Assembly: GCA_050732295.1 (NCBI GenBank)
Contig: JBOHQS010000001.1
Coordinates: 46,081 to 110,080 of the forward strand
Reading direction: 5' to 3'
Length of the DNA stretch: 64,000 bases
DNA from: Candidatus Methylomirabilales bacterium
GTDB lineage: Bacteria > Methylomirabilota > Methylomirabilia > Methylomirabilales > CSP1-5
Below the pieces are notes generated by a model, which ran no database searches, had not been told where the DNA came from, and saw only the letters and a list, made by a program, of their open reading frames with translations. Position 1 is the first letter of the stretch, and every line of letters starts with the position of its first letter. This document shows positions 11,456 to 54,488 of this stretch, piece after piece. A program made the translations under genes and the position numbers.

Positions 11456-12647
11456 GGCGACCGGTCCGGCGGAGCTTCTCGCTTCCCCCCCGGAGGATTT
11501 GTCCAACGTATTGTGAAAGCTCCTCAAGGGCAGGTCTGGGGTCATCCCACCGAAAGACCTCGTTCCTCGCCCCCTTGCCGAAATGTCTCAGAAACTCCCG
11601 AATGACTTTGGACGGGCTGGCGTCGCGAAGACGCAACAAGAGCCAATCGAGATTTCCAAGTCCCCACCGCAGACGGATGCCTTCCTGATAAGAAAATGTT
11701 GGCTCAATGTCTCCGTCCAGGGCCAACCGATACAGCAAGTGAGGAAAGTCCATTCCCGCGTCCACAGCGAGCTGCAGAGACCCCCAAAACCGCCCGTTAA
11801 CCTCCAGCAACTTGGGATTTCCATCGCGCGCATCATGTTTGAATTCCACCATAGCCACGCCGTGCCATTTCAAGGCCCCGAGGAGGCACTGCGAGTACTG
11901 GAGCAACTGCGAATCGAGTCCGACGCTTTCCGAAAGGACCGAGACCCCTCCAGAGGGAGGTTTCTCGCGGATTCGCCGGTGCGCAAAAGCGGCACGGAGT
12001 TTGCCCTGATTCATCAGGAGAAAGACACCGCGACCTTCGCCGGGAATGTATTCCTGCACCAGGGGAAGAGGGACAGTCTCATGGATCCTCCGGCACGCCG
12101 CCTCAAGCTGTCTCACAGTAGACACATAATGGGGCCCACCGCCACGCACCCACTCACCATTGCGGCGAAAATGGGAGAGGCGGGGCTTGACCACCGCGGG
12201 AAAGCCGACCCGTCGGATCGCTTCCGTGACATCATCCGGGTCGTGGACGAGCACGGTCTTCGGAACCGGAATTCCATGCTCCTGCGCCAATAACATCACA
12301 ACGCTCTTGTCGTGGGCGAGCTGAATGGCCTCGCGATCAGGAAACGGAAACGCAGCCAGGCCTTCGAATCGCGGCCGGGCCTCGGCTAGAAGCGTGAGGG
12401 CAACGTCATCGGCGGGAATAACAACGCGAACCCCGTTACGGGAGAGTATCTGACGAATCTCGTGGACAAACGCCGACCCCGCTGTGGCGGGTGATGGCAC
12501 CCGAATTGCCTTCTGACAATAGCGAGACGCGCCGGCCAGGCTCCTCGGCTGCTCATCAGCAACCGCCACCGGAATCCCTTGCCTACCAAGGCTCCGTGTG
12601 ACCGCCAGGGCGCTCCTGAGATTTCCGGGCGTCACAAGAACACTCAT
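11448..12647 (-). CDS. ATP-grasp domain protein (carboxylate-amine ligase type)
   Basis: Motifs are VVKPR...LVQEYIPGEGRGVFLL...VAMVEFKHD...KLLEVNGRFWGS. The preferred start is the ATG at 12647 (MSVLVTPG), which forms an ATGA overlap with the deacetylase stop. The ORF track begins at 12680. Confidence 0.7.
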   Translation of the reverse strand: MSVLVTPGNLRSALAVTRSLGRQGIPVAVADEQPRSLAGASRYCQKAIRVPSPATAGSAFVHEIRQILSRNGVRVVIPADDVALTLLAEARPRFEGLAAFPFPDREAIQLAHDKSVVMLLAQEHGIPVPKTVLVHDPDDVTEAIRRVGFPAVVKPRLSHFRRNGEWVRGGGPHYVSTVRQLEAACRRIHETVPLPLVQEYIPGEGRGVFLLMNQGKLRAAFAHRRIREKPPSGGVSVLSESVGLDSQLLQYSQCLLGALKWHGVAMVEFKHDARDGNPKLLEVNGRFWGSLQLAVDAGMDFPHLLYRLALDGDIEPTFSYQEGIRLRWGLGNLDWLLLRLRDASPSKVIREFLRHFGKGARNEVFRWDDPRPALEELSQYVGQILRGGSEKLRRTGRHE

Positions 12648-13819
12648 CCTCGCCTCATGCTCGGGGCACGAAACAGCCAAAGCCCAAGGCCTGACTCCAT
12701 GAATGACCGATTGCCTCCTCCAGAAACCCCCTCGTGCATGCCTACCCGTTGCAGGGCCAACGTCCCGAAACGCTCATCAGTAGGGACGGTCCGACAGAGA
12801 CATGCGGTCCGGTATCTCGCCTTTTCCACGAACGCCATGAGGTCTCGATTCGCGGCCCCATCAGGAAAGGCAAAATGTTTGACTTCTTGGCCAGTATGAC
12901 GCTCAATTTCAGCCTTTGACCGCACCAATTCGTTTCCCGCATCCTGGAGCTTGATTCGGGTGAGGATCCGGTGGGTACACCCGTGAGACCCCATCTCGAT
13001 CCCGGCTCCGGCCATCTCAGTGACCTGGCCCCAGTCTAGGAAGAAGCTGCGATCGGGGAACAGCGGCCTGCGGACGCCGAGTGCGTTGCCTACGTCACCA
13101 ATGAGCTGGTCGGTCGTCGGTTCATCGCACGTGGCTTTCACTGCCTCGATAAGAGGGTCAACATCGTGAGCGTCTGGTGCCTGTTCCATGTGAGCAAGTC
13201 GCATCAGACCGAGGCGGACGGGCGTTGGATACGGATCGAGAACGTACTGGGTCAACTTGAATCGGGACAACTCACCGTGCATCAGCAGATACATCAGCTC
13301 GGTATGCCAGAAGGCACGGTTCGTGCCGATGAAATCGGTAGTCAGAAAGACAGTCGCGGGGACACCATGTTTCTGGAGGATCGGAAAGGCGATCTCGTAA
13401 TTGTCCCGCCAACCGTCGTCGAAGGTAATTGAGCAGAAAGGGCGAGAGAGGGTCGAGAGTGGAGAGTTGAGAGAAGATTGCGGATTTCGGATTGCGGATT
13501 GCGGATTTGCCGATTGCGCATCGCGGAAGTCAGAACATTTCGAAATCCGAAATTCGAAATCCGAAATCAGCGAAGAGAGGGGGACGATGTCGAAGTATCT
13601 TCTCAAAAACTGGAGTTGGCGGTGGAACGTGTCGGCCGTGACGACCAACCCCGGCTGGGAGTAGTCCAGGGTCCGGTCCCACTTCTCGATGACCCGGTGG
13701 TAGGTCAGGACGAGGGCCGCGCCGCGCCGCGCCATGCTTGTAAGATATCGCTCCCATATCCCCGTCCGGAGCAGCGTCTCCCCCATTGCGGTCTTAGCTA
13801 TGGCTTTTAGCTTGTTCAT
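12644..13819 (-). CDS. polysaccharide deacetylase (NodB homology domain) carrying an in-frame repeat-derived insertion
   Basis: 391 aa. Motifs are LVLTYHRV, ITFDDGWRDNYEIAFPILQKHGVPATVFLTTDFIG and MGSHGCTHRIL. Residues ISDFEFRISKCSDFRDAQSANPQSAIRNPQSSLNSPLSTLS are encoded by the heptamer-repeat element at 13443-13568. Confidence 0.85.
   Translation of the reverse strand: MNKLKAIAKTAMGETLLRTGIWERYLTSMARRGAALVLTYHRVIEKWDRTLDYSQPGLVVTADTFHRQLQFLRRYFDIVPLSSLISDFEFRISKCSDFRDAQSANPQSAIRNPQSSLNSPLSTLSRPFCSITFDDGWRDNYEIAFPILQKHGVPATVFLTTDFIGTNRAFWHTELMYLLMHGELSRFKLTQYVLDPYPTPVRLGLMRLAHMEQAPDAHDVDPLIEAVKATCDEPTTDQLIGDVGNALGVRRPLFPDRSFFLDWGQVTEMAGAGIEMGSHGCTHRILTRIKLQDAGNELVRSKAEIERHTGQEVKHFAFPDGAANRDLMAFVEKARYRTACLCRTVPTDERFGTLALQRVGMHEGVSGGGNRSFMESGLGLWLFRAPSMRRG
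13443..13568. repeat. composite heptanucleotide-repeat element (GTTGAGA-like block plus a hairpin of CGGATT(T/G)/CGAAAT(C/T) arrays) inside the deacetylase CDS
   Basis: The sequence reads cgagagagggtcgagagtggagagttgagagaag, then ttgcggatttcggattgcggattgcggatttgccgattgcg, a ~16-nt loop, then catttcgaaatccgaaattcgaaatccgaaatc. The two arrays are imperfectly complementary. The element is ~126 nt (42 codons). Confidence 0.8.
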
Positions 13820-13833
13820 GGTTCACGATTCCC

Positions 13834-13987
13834 TGACCGATGACCGGTGACCGGCTCAGGATTTCGAATTTGGGATTTCGGATTTCGAAAGTGAACCGCG
13901 GTTCTGTTAAATTCAACATTCGCAATTCGAAATTCAAAATTTCTCCGCTCTGGACTCTCAACCTCCACTATCAACTCTCCGCCCTCA
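13834..13987. repeat. intergenic composite repeat element with no ORF ('empty' version): TGACCGG x3, a CGAATTT-family hairpin, and an inverted GTTGAGA-family block
   Basis: The parts are tgaccgatgaccggtgaccgg; ggatttcgaatttgggatttcggatttcgaaa; a loop containing the palindrome gaaccgcggttc; attcaacattcgcaattcgaaattcaaaatttc; and gactctcaacctccactatcaactctccgccctca. The last block also supplies the final codons and stop of the aminotransferase. Confidence 0.8.
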
Positions 13988-15167
13988 CTATCTCGATCAT
14001 TCTGTCGACATCAGAAGCAGTGACATACGGATGCGTCGGCAGAGTGATGATGCGTTCCGCTATCGATCGAGCGCCTGGACAATCTTGCTGAGCAGCACCC
14101 AGGTACTGCTCGATTCCCGGGATGTCGCCGATTGCCGTAGGATACGAAGTGCTGGCTCCAATCCCAGCATCCTTCAGGCGGGATAAGAGCCGCGAACGAT
14201 GCATCCCATCTCTCGCCAGGATCGGAAACCGAAGGTAGACCGGCGTCGCGCCTTCGACTAATTGGGGAATCTCAATCCCCTCTACCCCGTCGAGTCCCGC
14301 ACATAACAGCCGGGCGTTCTCGCAACGAACGCGGTTGTAAGGATGGACGAGAGTCCAGAGTCGAGAGGCTAGGCGTTCCTGGTACGGTGAGAGTTGTGTC
14401 ATTCGGAAGTTTGGGTCGAAAACTGAGACCCCCAGCCCGAGAAACGGAATGGGATCCAGCAGCCAGTATCGTGAGGGGGATAACATACCAGCATATAGTA
14501 CAGAGTTGAGCGTAGCAGAGAGAACACTGAAGGATGAGGGACGAGGGAGTTTTTTCAGTTCCTTCTGAATGAGATCAGCAAGGTCATCCTTCTGGGTGAT
14601 GAGGATTCCGCCACCCATGGTCGTGATATTTTTGCCTCGTCCCAGGCTATAAAAACCCGCATCGCCAAAGGTCCCGCAGGCCTTTCCGGCCAAGGTCGCC
14701 CCAAGGCATTGGGCGGCGTCGTCAATCAGATAGACCCCAGCAGCTCGGGCAATCTCTTCCAGCCCAAACAGGTCTGATGGCATCCCGTAAAGACTCGAGG
14801 GAACAATACAAAGCACCTTATCTAGATCAAGTCGTGTAAGAACAGTGTAATCCAAGTCGAGTGCCTTCGGATCCACATCGCACAGGCGGATGCTCAGTCC
14901 CGCACGAACCACCGCAGAAGGCACCGAAAAGCACGTATAGGCTGGGATGACCACTTCTCGCCTGCTGCATAGTTTTTGCAGCACTCTGAGAATTATCGTC
15001 AGGGCGGCCCGACCCGAGGAGATTGGAAAGACATGCGGCGCTCTCAGCCGCTGCCTCAGCAGCTTCTCGAGGCTGCTTTGGCTGTTCGAGGCAGGGTACA
15101 GCGACGACAGGACTGCGCGCGCCGGCAAGGGAGCTCCAGCGGGCGGAACTAGTCTGAACTTAGTCAT
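13971..15167 (-). CDS. DegT/DnrJ/EryC1/StrS-family PLP-dependent sugar aminotransferase
   Basis: 398 aa, with SSGRAALTIILRVL, LIDDAAQCLGA and FYSLGRGKNITTMGGGILIT (the PLP lysine region). Confidence 0.85.
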   Translation of the reverse strand: MTKFRLVPPAGAPLPARAVLSSLYPASNSQSSLEKLLRQRLRAPHVFPISSGRAALTIILRVLQKLCSRREVVIPAYTCFSVPSAVVRAGLSIRLCDVDPKALDLDYTVLTRLDLDKVLCIVPSSLYGMPSDLFGLEEIARAAGVYLIDDAAQCLGATLAGKACGTFGDAGFYSLGRGKNITTMGGGILITQKDDLADLIQKELKKLPRPSSFSVLSATLNSVLYAGMLSPSRYWLLDPIPFLGLGVSVFDPNFRMTQLSPYQERLASRLWTLVHPYNRVRCENARLLCAGLDGVEGIEIPQLVEGATPVYLRFPILARDGMHRSRLLSRLKDAGIGASTSYPTAIGDIPGIEQYLGAAQQDCPGARSIAERIITLPTHPYVTASDVDRMIEIVRAES

Positions 15168-15240
15168 GTTGAGAGTTGAGAGATGAGAGTTGAGGGTTGC
15201 GCAATAGTTGAGTGTTGAGAGTCTAGTGTTGAGAGTTAAG
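15168..15240. repeat. GTTGAGA heptamer tandem array (left arm of the degraded four-helix-bundle cassette)
   Basis: The sequence is gttgaga gttgaga gatgaga gttgagg gttgcgc...gtgttgagagtctagtgttgagagtt. It begins immediately after the aminotransferase start codon (15165-15167). Confidence 0.85.
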
Positions 15241-15457
15241 GGCGCTTTTCCAGGGTGCGGCGTAAGCCGCTGAGCATCTTGGCAACGTCTTCTGCCTTTT
15301 TGTACACTGTCGCGAACATTTCGCCGGTTAAGAATCCTTGTCTTTTGGCAATTTCCAATTCCGATACAGACTCGAGCAACGAACCGTATGCAATTTCGAT
15401 AAAGCGCGCCAAATCAATTTTCGACGCCCTGGAGGAACCTTCACTCTCGACTCTCAA
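15236..15457 (-). pseudogene. 5'-truncated four-helix-bundle protein gene (23S rRNA IVS protein/Avd-like family); only the C-terminal ~60 aa are recognisable
   Basis: The 73-aa ORF contains KIDLARFIEIAYGSLLESVSELEIAKRQGFLTGEMFATVYKKAEDVAKMLSGLRRTL, which matches helices 3-4 of the intact paralogue type at 53253-53609. The annotated start is a TTG lying inside the flanking repeat. Confidence 0.6.
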
Positions 15458-15458
15458 C
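15442..15458. repeat. inverted GTTGAGA-family arm (right arm of the degraded cassette), abutting the FemAB-like stop codon
   Basis: cactctcgactctcaac is the reverse complement of gttgagagtcgagagtg. The 10-nt gactctcaac pairs perfectly with gttgagagtc at 15214-15223. Confidence 0.7.
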
Positions 15459-15461
15459 GAG

Positions 15462-16493
15462 CTAAGGCAGATGTCGAACGATTCGGGGCCCGAGCCAGTT
15501 TGCTACAGGGAGAGGAAGTCGCTTCCATACTTCAATAAGGAACTTGAACCGCGGGTTAGAGGGGTTAAGTTGGGGCATATGTTTCCCGTTCAATAGAACG
15601 TACTGCCAGTGCAGTGGTTTGACCGTTGCACCCCACTGCTTCTTGAAATGGTACGTACCGGATCCCACCGTTGACCGTCCAAAGTCGAAGGTGCGGTAAC
15701 CGCCATCACAGGCCCGTTTGATCACTTCCCAATAGAGGAGGTTATTGGGACAGAGATGAAAATAGTCTCGCAGAGAGGACGCCGAAGGCATATAGACGGT
15801 ATCCTTAAAGGAGAGGACCAGCCCTCCTCCTATGACTTGCTGGGCCTGCCGGACCAGGGCGACCTCCGAGGTCTTTGGGAACGCCTTCAAGATGTTTTGA
15901 AAGAGGGAAATCCCCCAAACGGGGGTGCCCAGATCTCTCATGTTACGAGCGAATACCCGGTAAAATTCCGGTAACAGCCTTTCTCCGCCAAACTCACAGG
16001 TCAACCCAGCCCGTTGAGCCTTTCGGACTTGGTTCCGAACCTTGGGATCAAGGCGACCCCAAACCGACTCAGAGGTACCAAGCTCGAGCAAGAGTGTCAC
16101 CTTGTCTTGCCGAACCGGCAGATCCGGATATACTTTTTCCATTGAGCGAAGTTCGATAAAGGATGCCCTATCTGCCTCGGCCTGGGCGACTGCTGCGTGC
16201 AGCAGATGACGACCTATCTCCGGATTGTCGGCAATAATCCCCCCGTAATCCAGCCACGGAAGAGAGATGTGAAACGTCCCAAAGAGCCAGTGCCTGAGGA
16301 GCATTATCGGCAGGATTCCACAAACCTCGCCGCCCCGCGCGGCGATCAGTGACCTGTCCTGGTGGCCGAGAGCCCGGGAAACCAAAGATGACCAGGGAGT
16401 CGCATGGGCGAGGGTGGCGCCAGGCGCCGCCTCAACAAAAACCTCGCACTCCGCAGCCCATCTCTCCGAAAACCGGTGGACCACTACCGTCAT
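15462..16493 (-). CDS. FemAB-family/GNAT-fold acyltransferase of the type associated with exosortase (PEP-CTERM) EPS loci
   Basis: Motifs are RNQVRKAQRAGL, FYRVFARNMRDLGTPVW, NNLLYWEVIKRACDGGYRTFDFGRSTVGSGTYHFKKQWGA. The preferred start is the ATG at 16493 (an ATGA overlap with the upstream stop); the ORF track begins at 16505. Confidence 0.75.
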   Translation of the reverse strand: MTVVVHRFSERWAAECEVFVEAAPGATLAHATPWSSLVSRALGHQDRSLIAARGGEVCGILPIMLLRHWLFGTFHISLPWLDYGGIIADNPEIGRHLLHAAVAQAEADRASFIELRSMEKVYPDLPVRQDKVTLLLELGTSESVWGRLDPKVRNQVRKAQRAGLTCEFGGERLLPEFYRVFARNMRDLGTPVWGISLFQNILKAFPKTSEVALVRQAQQVIGGGLVLSFKDTVYMPSASSLRDYFHLCPNNLLYWEVIKRACDGGYRTFDFGRSTVGSGTYHFKKQWGATVKPLHWQYVLLNGKHMPQLNPSNPRFKFLIEVWKRLPLPVANWLGPRIVRHLP

Positions 16494-51798: not shown

Positions 51799-53157
51799 TC
51801 AGCTATCTTCATCCTCATCAGCTCTGTTGAATCCGGACGCAGAGAAATCCTCAGCAGGATTCTTGTGGGGAATTAGTTCCCACGCGTGCGGAGCGATCAC
51901 GCTACCCCACTTGGACTTGGGCAAATCTGTAAAGCCGCTATCACCGCCGTCAATGACGGTAATCCTTGCCGCGCGGCTTACATAGTCAGCTTGTCCTTGA
52001 GCATCCTTAATAGAGACATCGGCCCAATACACGCCGGGAATCAAGGGTAAATTCTTAATTCTGCAAATGACTTGCCCTCTTGGGGCGGAGTGCCGGAAAT
52101 TGGAATTTGTCATGCCTGTGCTGAAGGAGATCAAATTAACACCCTGAGTGTCTGTCACTGTGATTCCGACATACAAATGTAACAGCGGTTGTTCTTCTCT
52201 GGCGCTATAGCCGACGATGAATTCAGTATCACCGCCAGTACGCGGAGGGCTGAAGCGATCTGCGCAAGCCCTGGCCTCAAATGTCACCACACGCACATTC
52301 CCACTTCCAAACCTATCTTGTCGTTCAGTCAAGTCTGCATAGGGCGCTCCGTTATCAGAATAAGTGGTGATCAGGTATTCCTGAATAGCATCATCCGTTG
52401 TTCCTGACAATTGAATGTGGCCTTCCCGAAGAAGGAGGGCACGCGAGCAAAGATTACGCACTGCCCCCATATTATGACTCACAAACAACACGGTCCGTCC
52501 TTGTTTGGCCACATCCCCCATCTTGCCCAGACACTTCTTCTGAAACTGCGCATCCCCGACCGCCAGCACCTCATCTACGATCAAGATCTCCGGCTCCAGG
52601 TGCGCAGCCACGGCGAAGGCGAGACGCACATACATGCCGCTGGAGTAGTGTTTCACCGGCGTGTCAATAAACTTCTCTACCCCGGAGAAATCCACGATTT
52701 CATCGAATTTCCGATCGATCTCGGCGTTCCTCATCCCCAGGATGGCGCCATTCAGGTACACGTTCTCGCGGCCGGTCAGCTCTCGATCGAAACCCGTACC
52801 TACCTCCAGCAAGCTCCCCACCCTGCCGTATATCTCGGCCCGTCCAGCGGTTGGCTCGGTGATGCGTGAGAGGATCTTGAGCAGCGTACTCTTGCCGGCC
52901 CCGTTAGGTCCGATGATACCCAGCGTTTCGCCCTGTTTGACGGTGAAGGAGACGTCCTTGAGGGCCCAAATATACTCGGAAGACGGGAGACCGGAGACGG
53001 GGGACCGGGACGAGCTAGGACCGGAGACCGGAGACCGGGAGTGGCAGAAGAGGCCAGTGAGGCCAGAAGTGAGCAGGTCCTTGAGGCGGTCGTGGCGCCT
53101 GATCCCGATCTTGTATTGTTTCGAAAGATTTTCGACGCGAATGGCAATCTGGCTCAC
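51799..53157 (-). CDS. wzt: polysaccharide ABC exporter ATP-binding protein with a C-terminal glycan-binding (Wzt_C-like) domain
   Basis: 452 aa with a GTG start preceded by GGAG. Walker A is GPNGAGKST, the signature is [12 protein letters not shown] and Walker B is [12 protein letters not shown]. An extra ~190-aa beta-rich C-domain follows. The N-terminal low-complexity insert [21 protein letters not shown] is encoded by repeats. Confidence 0.9.
52977..53041. repeat. CGGAGAC/GGAGACC heptamer tandem arrays inside the wzt 5' coding region
   Basis: The sequence is gggagac cggagac gggggac cgggacg agcta ggaccggagaccggagaccgggag. It translates (minus strand) to [21 protein letters not shown]. Confidence 0.75.
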
Positions 53158-53167
53158 GGGAGCTCCG

Positions 53168-53654
53168 ATTTCGAATTGCGAATTTCGAATTTCGAATTTA
53201 GGTGCGAATTGTTAATTTCCACTTTTGGATTTCGGGTTAAATAGTGCAAGATTCAGCTCCGGCGAAACTTGGATGTTTTCCCGATGCTTGTAAATATCGC
53301 AAGCAACTCGGGCGACTCCTCGAGCAGCCGCCGCCGGTCTTCAGGCCTGCCAATGTTGGACTCGCTGAGGAGCTCTAACCAATACTGTGTTTCTGCTGCC
53401 TCCTTTTCGACGATGGCGATCTTGTGGATAAAGTCACTCTTGGACTGGGCCCTATTGGCCTCACGATAATTAGCCCCAACCGACGTTCCCGACTTCAACA
53501 ATTGTGTTCCCAATGTGTGAGTCACTTTATCCGGGGATAGCCCAGCCACAAATGCGACCACCTTCAATGCAAATGCTTTTGTCCGTCTCTCTAGCTCAGC
53601 CTTATCCACGGCCGCTTCTTGACAATTCCAAATTCGAAATTCGCAATTCGAAAT
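53168..53654 (-). mobile_element. inverted-repeat-bounded four-helix-bundle gene cassette inserted exactly between wzm and wzt
   Basis: The 25-nt atttcgaattgcgaatttcgaattt (53168-53192) is the perfect reverse complement of aaattcgaaattcgcaattcgaaat (53630-53654). Pairing extends to ~31 bp with one mismatch (53168-53198 with 53624-53654). The right arm ends at the wzm stop codon and the left arm ends ~6 nt before the wzt RBS. The mobile nature is inferred; no transposase is present. Confidence 0.6.
53253..53609 (-). CDS. four-helix-bundle protein (23S rRNA intervening-sequence protein / Avd-like family)
   Basis: 118 aa, with ERRTKAFALKVVAFV, QLLKSGTSVGANYREANRAQSKSDFIHKIAIVEKEAAETQYWLELL. These are hallmark motifs of the family as I recall it. 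Confidence 0.85.
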   Translation of the reverse strand: MDKAELERRTKAFALKVVAFVAGLSPDKVTHTLGTQLLKSGTSVGANYREANRAQSKSDFIHKIAIVEKEAAETQYWLELLSESNIGRPEDRRRLLEESPELLAIFTSIGKTSKFRRS

Positions 53655-54488
53655 TCAAATGATGTCGGCAAAGGTACGTTCCATCTGCTTGAAGTAAACG
53701 ATCCCCGCGAACAGTAATGCCAGTACGACGACGGCGCCAACCGCCATCACCCCGAAATCCGGGCTCTGGGTTCCTAGCATCGCCCAGCGAAAGCCCTCGA
53801 TGACGCCGACCATGGGGTTCAGGCTGTACAACAGTCGCCATTTTTCCGGGACCAGGCTGACCGGGTAGATAACCGGCGAGGCGTACATCCAGAATTGGGT
53901 CACGAAGGGGATGATATAGCCCACATCCCGGTACTTGACGTTCAGGGCCGAGAGAAACAGACCCACCGCCAAGGCCGTCATGAAGGCCACGAGCAGGAAG
54001 AGGGGCAGAGCCAATACGGCCCAGGTGGGAGTGATACCGTACCAGACCGTCAAGCCCACCAGGATCACGAAGGACAACCCGAAATCGACGAGAGGGGTCA
54101 CGATGGAAGCCAAAGGAATGATCAGCCGCGGAAAGTAGACCTTGCTGATCAAGTTCGCGCTACCCACCAGGCCTCCCCCTCCACGGCTGAGGGCCTGGCT
54201 GAAATAGGTCCACGGCAGCAGGGCCGTGTAGGCAAAGATGGGATACGGCACCCCGTCCGAGGGGATCTTGGCTAGATAGCTGAAGATGACGGTGAAGATC
54301 ATCATGGTGAGCAACGGTTGGAGGATGACCCAGCCGGCACCGATCACCGTCTGCTTGTAGCGAACCTTCACGTCCCGCCACACCAAGAAATAAAGCAGCT
54401 CGCGGTATTGCCATACGGCCCCGAGATCCATGTGGAAGAGGCGCCTTCGGGGCTCGATCACAACAGTGGGAATGCTTATGTCTCGCAC
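53655..54488 (-). CDS. wzm: polysaccharide ABC exporter permease (ABC-2 type)
   Basis: 277 aa with six hydrophobic segments. Motifs are RELLYFLVWRDVKVRYKQTVIGAGW and NPMVGVIEGFRW. It has a GTG start preceded by AGGAG. Confidence 0.9.
   Translation of the reverse strand: MRDISIPTVVIEPRRRLFHMDLGAVWQYRELLYFLVWRDVKVRYKQTVIGAGWVILQPLLTMMIFTVIFSYLAKIPSDGVPYPIFAYTALLPWTYFSQALSRGGGGLVGSANLISKVYFPRLIIPLASIVTPLVDFGLSFVILVGLTVWYGITPTWAVLALPLFLLVAFMTALAVGLFLSALNVKYRDVGYIIPFVTQFWMYASPVIYPVSLVPEKWRLLYSLNPMVGVIEGFRWAMLGTQSPDFGVMAVGAVVVLALLFAGIVYFKQMERTFADII

Follow-up and report, generated by a model that had tools for sequence, protein, structure and literature searches.

In a 64,000-nt stretch of contig JBOHQS010000001.1 from a Candidatus Methylomirabilales bacterium (assembly GCA_050732295.1), which we refer to as the window, the ABC-exporter genes wzm and wzt are separated by a 487-nt element in which the gene for a small four-helix-bundle (4HB) protein is enclosed by inverted arms of tandem heptamers. 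This element belongs, as an intact copy, to a large class of ~0.4- to 0.7-kb cassettes that lack a promoter and carry a 4HB open reading frame (ORF) in the loop of a long stem with heptamer arms, and it is probably a selfish, evolutionarily mobile cassette of the intervening-sequence (IVS) type that rides on the transcription of its host operon, the protein-operon counterpart of the ORF-containing IVSs of 23S rRNA. The cassette class is very widespread inside ordinary operons and is apparently undescribed. Its build recurs throughout the family, the encoded protein is under purifying selection, cassettes have been gained and replaced at one fixed junction, and decayed and ORF-less derivatives occur as well.

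The element occupies the entire gap between wzm and wzt, lies on the minus strand, as do both hosts and every other gene nearby in the window, and leaves 0 nt after the wzm stop codon and 10 nt before the wzt start (Table 1). Its 31-nt arms are 97% complementary, with one mismatch, and stand 425 nt apart; 54 nt lie between the 4HB ORF and the 3' arm, and the 10 nt that separate this arm from the wzt GTG, CGGAGCTCCC, contain GGAG. A preliminary description of the stretch had recognized here a perfect 25-bp inverted repeat extending to ~31 bp with one mismatch, an IVS-type ORF of 118 amino acids between its arms, and an insertion that takes up the whole space between the two genes, all of which holds. 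The arms are tandem heptamers of the form (ATTTCGA)n, for which Tandem Repeats Finder gives a period of 7 and 4.6 and 5.4 copies, and a deviant unit, ATTGCGA, is mirrored in both arms. In a predicted RNA fold of 521 nt, the arms are paired in both the minimum-free-energy and the centroid structures (-173 kcal/mol, z -3.4), and 0 of 100 shuffles were as stable as the native sequence. Within the cassette, the gene strand has no predicted promoter or terminator, and an Rfam scan of 50-57 kb at E up to 1 gave no match and no rRNA. The identical element sequence is present in two separate assemblies (L001 and L002).

To our knowledge, the S23/IVS protein family to which the ORF belongs has two crystal structures and no known function. 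The window 4HB protein matches PF05635 (E 7e-17, 62 bits against a cut-off of 33.8) and TIGR02436 (E 2e-23, 82.9 bits against a cut-off of 24), and a profile search of the PDB with the protein retrieved 2rld (BT_0352; E 3e-25) and 2gsc (Xcc0516; E 1e-19), each of which contains five chains. An AlphaFold2 monomer model made with 24 homologues (predicted local distance difference test score 94) has four helices, and Foldseek relates it to 2rld (template-modeling score, TM, 0.82-0.89), to 2gsc (0.80), and to the accessory protein Avd of a diversity-generating retroelement (DGR), 4dwl (0.76), with 8ub7 also similar. The protein carries the motif K39-x3-S43-x3-N47-x2-E50, of which S43, N47, and E50 do not vary between cassette types, and R/K-x3-S-x3-N-x2-E is the conserved motif of the family (Lin 2006; Zhang 2013, PMC3936711). 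The PF05635/TIGR02436 family of BT_0352 and Xcc0516 thus has the same profile, fold, and S-x3-N-x2-E motif as the window protein; it is annotated as a protein only, and no account of its heptamer stems or of a habit of occupying operon junctions was found in the literature searched. Starting from the window protein alone, 10,709 clusters at 50% identity were detected. The dN/dS ratio between the window gene and its orthologues in two related loci, L083 and L084, is 0.06-0.12, which indicates that the protein is maintained by selection.

The resemblance of the fold to DGR Avd (4dwl and 8ub7), together with reports that PF05635 is Avd-like, the families being regarded as homologous (PMC10053308), and that its genes occur inside cas operons (PMC3936711), could be taken to mean that the 4HB protein is an Avd or a component of a defense system and that the repeats are part of that system. 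We regard this as very improbable. The sequence identity of the window protein to Avd is 11-14%; the NCBIfam Avd models did not match it, the only match besides TIGR02436 being to PRK12275, far below threshold; and PADLOC defense-system models gave no match at E up to 0.01. The genes within 3 kb are those of sugar metabolism and export (NTP_transferase/SIS, hydrolase, TAL_FSA, wzm, wzt, Methyltransf_21, and epimerase), and neither a reverse transcriptase nor template/variable repeats are found in this interval, so that the protein is not a DGR Avd in spite of the common fold. The position of PF05635 genes between cas genes, which was read as a CRISPR association (PMC3936711), fits a general habit of insertion between co-oriented genes, and this is the simpler account.

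The build of the window element recurs across the family. From GTDB representative genomes, 80 loci with 4HB relatives of 46-71% identity were sampled in Chloroflexota, Binatia, Acidobacteriota, Verrucomicrobiota, Lentisphaerota, Bacteroidota, Desulfobacterota, Planctomycetota, and other groups, and 74 of the genes could be tested for an inverted repeat scoring at least 13 within 180-nt flanks, the controls being random window pairs of the same spacing from the same loci. Flanking arms were present at 52 of the 74 homologues and at 3 of the 740 controls (median inverted-repeat scores 16 and 8; Mann-Whitney p = 1e-40), figures that refer to metagenome contigs, heuristic ORF calling, and ungapped arm detection. 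The arms are nearly always short tandem repeats, with a period of 7 nt in 39 of 64 cassettes and of 8-9 nt in another 17, and in 57 of the 64 purines predominate in the 5' arm and pyrimidines in the 3' arm. Both neighboring genes point the same way as the cassette in 58 of 82 cases, and wherever a neighbor is co-oriented, the median distance is 8 nt from the upstream stop to the 5' arm and 21 nt from the 3' arm to the downstream start. The median cassette length is 476 nt (range 413-720), and the window element, which measures 487 nt and leaves 0 and 10 nt to its neighbors, is typical of the class. Junctions that host cassettes include wzm/wzt and wza/wzc, and others follow a GHMP kinase gene or an AAA/Mg-chelatase-like gene. 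Several homologues of the window type have protein tails encoded by the arm (NPKSQIRNPKS). Cognate arm 11-mers recur elsewhere in their own loci 6.5-fold more than in other loci. Among 2.9 million viral contigs of IMG/VR, searched with a pattern, there were six 4HB relatives, two of which (L172 and L174) have heptamer inverted arms, of the CAATTGA and GTTAGGA types, and with so few matches phages are not an obvious vehicle.

These comparisons also bear on whether the inverted repeat of the window could have arisen by chance from low-complexity sequence. When the arms are tandem heptamers, fewer independent coincidences are enough to give a long match; indeed, the 25 matched positions are for this reason not independent, pairing may slip by 7 nt, and alternative pairings slipped in this way appear among the inverted repeats detected in the element. 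Yet the exact 25-mer, which occurs once per strand in the 64-kb window, had 0 matches in 100 dinucleotide shuffles of the window even with up to 3 mismatches tolerated, the controls just described have hardly any arms, and arm units that differ wholly among lineages (ATTTCGR, GAAAGCG, GAAAGTA, CTAAAGTG, and others) form arms that are in each cassette always complementary to one another. A chance origin was rejected on the shuffles and controls, and its probability is practically negligible.

The history of the junction was followed in 86 wzm loci related to that of the window. In at least 30 relatives, with Wzm 47-77% identical, the junction is empty and wzm and wzt overlap or nearly touch, typically through the stop/start overlap TGATG (...GTG TGA TG GGT...). 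In 11 distinct loci (Wzm 67-100% identical) it is filled by a 4HB cassette that directly follows the wzm stop and belongs to one of four types; types B to D were overlooked at this junction by tblastn with the window 4HB protein alone and were recovered with a broader hidden Markov model (HMM). Type A, with ATTTCGA arms, is found in the window, L083, and L084, and the segment after the arm, which reads CGGAGCTTCC in L083 and CGGAGCTCGC in L084, shares CGGAGCT and the start codon with the window, indicating that the three cassettes are orthologous. Type B (the L085 group, the L087 group, and L091) has GACCGRA arms and an ORF that crosses the 3' arm, type C (L094, L144, and L090) has GAGAGTY arms, and type D (L093 and L119) has GCGCAAAG-like arms. 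By comparison with the empty relatives, the window cassette occupies exactly the former stop-start overlap of wzm and wzt, to which it has brought a new GGAG for wzt.

The types do not follow their hosts. Hosts of types A to C have Wzm proteins that are 80-88% identical, and the identity of their 4HB proteins is 75-96% within types and 20-35% between them; for example, L083 and L091 share 88% identity in Wzm and 27% in the 4HB protein. The window 4HB is nearer to 4HB proteins of Anaerolineae and Binatia (65-71%) than to those of the cassettes that occupy the same site in its near relatives, and type-A proteins that are 58-71% identical, with arms of the ATTTCGR/ATTGCGR type, occur in Chloroflexota, Binatia, Acidobacteriota, and Methylacidiphilales. 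The discordance between Wzm and the 4HB protein excludes a single ancestral insertion followed by divergence, and the junction must have been filled or refilled several times. One and the same junction being empty in some loci and filled by unrelated cassettes in others, gain or exchange of the cassette is independent of the genes that host it, and this identifies the cassette as selfish and horizontally mobile. In two further relatives, L092 and L095 (Wzm 80-81%), a different gene and no cassette follows wzm.

Several observations were made on individual junctions. In type B (L085 3994-4419 and L091 1026-1415), passage of the ORF through the 3' arm gives the protein the tail ...RRAGPRSPVSGRSER, and its stop codon overlaps the ATG of wzt (ATGA), an overlap that would permit translational coupling of wzt to the cassette ORF. 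Between the type-B cassettes of L085 (3837-3856) and L087 (2934-2974), whose 4HB proteins are 96% identical, one has three extra heptamers in its 5' arm; arms thus appear to behave as unstable simple-sequence repeats (SSRs), like those reported from Coxiella strains. A 516-nt filler of the wzm/wzt junction in L101 (3817-4332) has the inverted repeat CCTCAAAAATGCGCGAAGG / CCTTCGCGCTTTTTTGAGG around no recognizable 4HB ORF, and may be a decayed cassette or one with different cargo. In L087 (3527-3622, and 4982 onward) and in L088, the first ~32 codons of wzt are duplicated and are followed by a GDSL-lipase gene and then by a complete wzt; the fragment ends at the usual site of an in-frame heptamer array. 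A duplicated 5' fragment of wzt also precedes a second wzt start in L140 (~2088 onward). The arrays look like recombination breakpoints.

One consideration is that retention at this site might be due to the host. The arms of most cassettes begin within a few nucleotides of the upstream stop, and 11 of the 13 distinct arrangements in which Wzm is at least 79% identical keep a cassette directly after wzm while its type differs, as would be expected if what is selected were an intercistronic RNA stem-loop that stabilizes the 3' end of wzm or serves as a processing site setting the wzm:wzt ratio, in the manner of repetitive extragenic palindromic (REP) sequences, with the 4HB gene as a passenger; the heptamer repeats of Xanthomonas, near stop codons where transcripts end (PMC4692102), would suit the same account. 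Many relatives nevertheless function with overlapping wzm and wzt and no element, the same cassette type stands in operons as unrelated as wza/wzc, the GHMP kinase and AAA/Mg-chelatase-like operons, and accB/accC, and neither the low dN/dS of the 4HB gene nor the identity of 58-71% that its product retains across phyla is expected of a passenger. Retention can also be explained by a ratchet, in which the TGATG coupling has been destroyed and the cassette flank supplies the ribosome-binding site of wzt: precise loss of the cassette would strip wzt of its start context, and this may be why a cassette of one type or another persists in close relatives while its type changes. We therefore consider a host-selected stem-loop unlikely, though with some chance of being correct.

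In addition to the intact cassette, the window contains further copies and derivatives of these elements (Table 1). A second cassette, of type C and lacking its 5' half, fills the gap from a GNAT/FemAB-type gene (stop 15462-15464) to a DegT aminotransferase gene (ATG at 15167); an HMM made from close type-A homologues overlooked it, and a broader iterated HMM and Pfam detected it. Types A and C thus coexist in this genome, each with its own arms, and arm sequence follows the type of 4HB protein more generally: across 64 cassettes, arm 5-mer similarity tracks 4HB identity (Mantel r = 0.44, a value reached in 0 of 999 permutations). Two ORF-less type-A hairpins were found by searching for the 25-mer at 2-3 mismatches, and there are solo arrays of three heptamer types. 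In the predicted deacetylase, the in-frame hairpin and type-C array add ~43 residues (ISDFEFRISKCSDFRDAQSANPQSAIRNPQSSLNSPLSTLS) between the N-terminal 84 residues and TFDDG. The region between the aminotransferase and deacetylase genes holds a stack of a type-C array of the 5' kind, a type-A hairpin, and a type-B array of the 3' kind, and the aminotransferase gene is bracketed by type-C arrays of opposite polarity. In Wzt, an N-terminal loop (codons ~36-62) consists of in-frame arrays, always of 3'-arm polarity, in the window, L083, L084, L085, L091, L093, L144, and L099; the heptamer differs by relative (CCGGTCT, AAATCCG/AAATTCG, CTCTCGAC, and CGCTCAG), and the arrays yield a hypervariable linker rich in S, P, Q, R, and N, encoded ~110 nt downstream of the cassette.

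Table 1. Coordinates of the cassettes, their hosts, and related repeats in the window.
Feature	Position	Strand	Remarks
wzm, ABC-2 permease (ABC2_membrane), 277 aa	53655..54488	-	Stop codon TGA (53655-53657) touches the 5' arm
5' arm (transcript sense) ATTTCGAATTGCGAATTTCGAATTTGGAATT, ~4.4 heptamers	53624..53654	-	Directly after the wzm stop
Spacer from 5' arm to 4HB start, 14 nt, GUCAAGAAGCGGCC	53610..53623	-	AAGAAG, a Shine-Dalgarno-like stretch, 5 nt ahead of GTG
4HB ORF, GTG start, 118 aa, PF05635/TIGR02436, type A	53253..53609	-	Profile matches
3' arm (transcript sense) AATTCGAAATTCGAAATTCGCAATTCGAAAT	53168..53198	-	Complementary to the 5' arm
Post-arm spacer CGGAGCUCCC, 10 nt	53158..53167	-	GGAG ribosome-binding site for wzt, from sequence
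wzt, ABC ATPase and Wzt_C (ABC_tran + Wzt_C), 452 aa	51799..53157	-	GTG start; ATG in relatives
Second cassette, type C (GAGAGTY arms), 5' half deleted, 291 nt	15168..15458	-	Arms and Pfam match
Second cassette, 5' arm GTTGAGAGTCGAGAGTGAAGG	15438-15458	-	
Second cassette, remnant 4HB ORF, 73 codons	15236-15457	-	PF05635 profile 48-106 only, E 8e-12
Second cassette, 3' arm (CTCTCAAC)n, 68 nt	15168-15235	-	Up to the DegT ATG
ORF-less type-A hairpin, arms 13909-13941 and 13859-13890, 18-nt loop	13859..13941	-	Intergenic, upstream of the deacetylase gene
ORF-less type-A hairpin	13476..13568	-	In frame in the polysaccharide deacetylase ORF (12644-13819)
Solo array, type-C 5'-arm polarity, (GAGAGTN)n	13947..13994	-	Overlaps the 3' end of the aminotransferase ORF
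Solo array, type-C 3'-arm polarity (CTCTCAAC/CTCTCGAC)	13441..13475	-	In frame in the deacetylase ORF
Solo array, type-B 3'-arm polarity, (CCGGTCA)3	13831..13858	-	Just upstream of the deacetylase start
Solo array in wzt, (CCGGTCT)n	52981..53038	-	In frame, N-terminal loop; heptamer as in type-B arms of relatives

The window element exhibits a close likeness to the ORF-containing IVSs of 23S rRNA, of which that of Coxiella burnetii is 428 nt long, is closed by a stem of 28 bp that contains a mismatch and a bulge, has two or three strain-variable tandem GACAGAT heptamers just upstream of an S23p ORF, and has an AGAAGA stretch before this ORF (PMC4990558). RNase III cuts the Coxiella IVS in its stem (PMC4990558). 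The common features, for the 23S IVS class in which Leptospira is also named, are size, a terminal stem of ~28-31 bp, heptamers in or near the arm, an ORF of the same family in the loop, an AG-rich, weak Shine-Dalgarno-like stretch before it, and the lack of an own promoter. The rRNA elements, however, lie in helix 25 or 45 of the 23S rRNA, whereas the window element lies between wzm and wzt, and the ORF that is decaying in Coxiella is intact and under purifying selection here. The window element is therefore IVS-like in anatomy and yet is not a 23S IVS. Of what the preliminary description had proposed, the IVS likeness is borne out by the Coxiella element in size, stem, heptamers, and protein family, and the idea of a self-contained mobile module is supported by the empty junctions, by the unrelated cassette types at one site, and by the further arm copies in the window; it had also called for the comparison of junctions, which gave the empty and filled loci described above, and for a search for a target-site pattern, of which none was detected. 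Its further proposal, a processing site in the stem that could uncouple the stability of the wzm and wzt transcripts, received no RNA-strand signal from the arm mismatches. It had overlooked the heptamer arrays, the general family, and the second, decayed cassette.

The arms also exhibit a likeness to heptameric SSRs that have been described on their own. Rehm et al. (2015) described 186 GGGAATC arrays in Xanthomonas campestris, mostly between co-oriented ORFs and near the upstream stop, 70 cases being convergent pairs; their positions are not conserved between Xcc and Xac, transcripts start and stop in them more often than in controls, and they were read as G-quadruplex elements with a Nostoc counterpart, GGGGAYT (PMC4692102). 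TAACTGA heptamer repeats are known from Beggiatoaceae (PMC4679880). The published arrays of Xanthomonas, Nostoc, and Beggiatoaceae are, like the arms described here, transcribed repeats between co-oriented ORFs, near the upstream stop and often in convergent pairs capable of forming a stem-loop. The short tandemly repeated repetitive (STRR) sequences of cyanobacteria are further heptameric repeats to which this description applies. The papers on such repeats give a G-quadruplex or regulatory reading and do not mention a 4HB gene, but the ATTTCGA heptamers of the window cannot form G-quadruplexes, and what they have in common with the published repeats is complementarity rather than G-richness. 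In an X. campestris locus (L169 2424-2875, GCA_035012225.1), a 4HB gene of the Xcc0516 type lies between accB and accC, flanked by an arm GGGAATC GGGAGTG GAGAATC GGGAATC and a complementary array, of which 26 of 30 positions are paired with a mismatch at every seventh position, and the 3' arm extends to the ATG of accC. The published Xanthomonas repeats thus include arms of this cassette. No paper was found that ties heptamer repeats to a 4HB gene outside rRNA or describes IVS-type cassettes outside rRNA, a search that left most subscription journals uncovered and in which absence is not proof. Finally, REPIN/RAYT systems and miniature inverted-repeat transposable elements likewise combine a gene flanked by short repeats with ORF-less inverted pairs of the same repeats; the cassettes differ in that 4HB is not known as a transposase, that each arm is a tandem array in place of a single REP motif, and that a target-site duplication is lacking.

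A number of points weigh against the reading of the element as a selfish, mobile IVS-type cassette. The term mobile refers to phylogenetic discordance, and replacement of the site by homologous recombination with neighboring DNA could look like insertion. In Binatia and Anaerolineae, type-A cassettes likewise stand at wzm/wzt, at a Wzm identity of only 55-57%; in part, they may thus have traveled together with the export genes, or this site may be preferred. The 4HB protein is all that the element encodes; a recombinase, a transposase, and a reverse transcriptase are absent from it. Over 64 cassettes, the mean length of the longest direct repeat between the outer flanks is 4.34 nt, compared with 4.21 nt in mismatched-pair controls, which gives no sign of a target-site duplication. 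The correlation between arm similarity and 4HB identity is confounded by host relatedness. With regard to the analogy to rRNA, the ORF of the Coxiella IVS is decaying and probably untranslated (PMC4990558), and RNase III excision, which is demonstrated for that element, would apply to the window element by analogy. Lastly, among arm mismatches on the sense strand, G:U and A:C pairs numbered 79 and 92 (p = 0.36; 82 arm pairs), and with no excess of G:U, they give no signal that the stem is selected as RNA rather than as DNA.

This last result would suit a reading in which the heptamer arrays work as DNA, forming cruciforms or slipping, and so serve as recombination sites by which the genes of polysaccharide loci are reshuffled, the inverted arms being one consequence. 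Arrays do bracket whole genes, as with the aminotransferase between type-C arrays, the duplicated wzt fragments of L087 and L088 end at an array with an inserted gene behind them (another duplication being that of L140), and the number of units varies between the near-identical cassettes of L085 and L087. We consider this reading improbable, as it leaves unexplained why inverted arms always surround an ORF of one family with a fixed polarity (the purine-rich 5' arm) and why the same build is found in 23S rRNA, where RNase III excision has been demonstrated (PMC4990558), and cassettes also occur in non-variable operons such as accBC.

On the reading of the element as a selfish IVS-type cassette, the precedent of the rRNA IVS and the lack of promoter and terminator signals suggest that it would be transcribed by read-through from the host operon only. 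By the same precedent, its arms would pair in the RNA as a 31-bp helix, and RNase III would cut this helix, severing wzm from wzt and freeing the 4HB message. Translation of wzt would start from the GGAG of the cassette flank, which would replace the lost TGATG coupling. The 4HB protein is, by analogy, a putative pentameric, Avd-like nucleic-acid binder, and we speculate that it may bind its own heptamer arrays and so help the cassette and its ORF-less derivatives to persist or spread.

A broader reading, which we offer tentatively and hold to be possible rather than probable, is that 4HB IVS proteins and their cognate inverted heptamer arrays constitute one widespread, unrecognized class of bacterial elements. 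In that case, autonomous cassettes would carry the 4HB gene, and hairpins and solo arrays would be non-autonomous derivatives, related to the cassettes as REPIN is to RAYT, with the 4HB pentamer recognizing its own repeat type. The IVS of 23S rRNA would be the special case of a cassette that landed in rRNA, and the excess of heptameric SSRs, such as STRR and the Xanthomonas GGGAATC arrays, would be the footprint of the class, including the in-frame arrays that make hypervariable loops such as that of Wzt.

What is new here is an IVS-type cassette in an mRNA operon and not in rRNA, and the sequence comparisons point to a general, apparently undescribed class and to a link between IVS proteins, rRNA intervening sequences, and heptameric repeats. 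If true, this would join the function of the S23/IVS proteins, the origin of rRNA IVSs, and the excess of heptameric repeats in bacterial genomes. Such cassettes would confound guilt-by-association annotation, as when PF05635 was scored as CRISPR-associated from its position between cas genes. X. campestris, in which the structure of the organism's own 4HB protein has been solved, offers a culturable model. Cassettes occur in essential operons too, as in accBC of Xanthomonas, and if RNase III processes them in mRNAs, they would form an unrecognized layer of operon architecture that cuts polycistronic messages, breaks translational coupling, and adds ribosome-binding sites.

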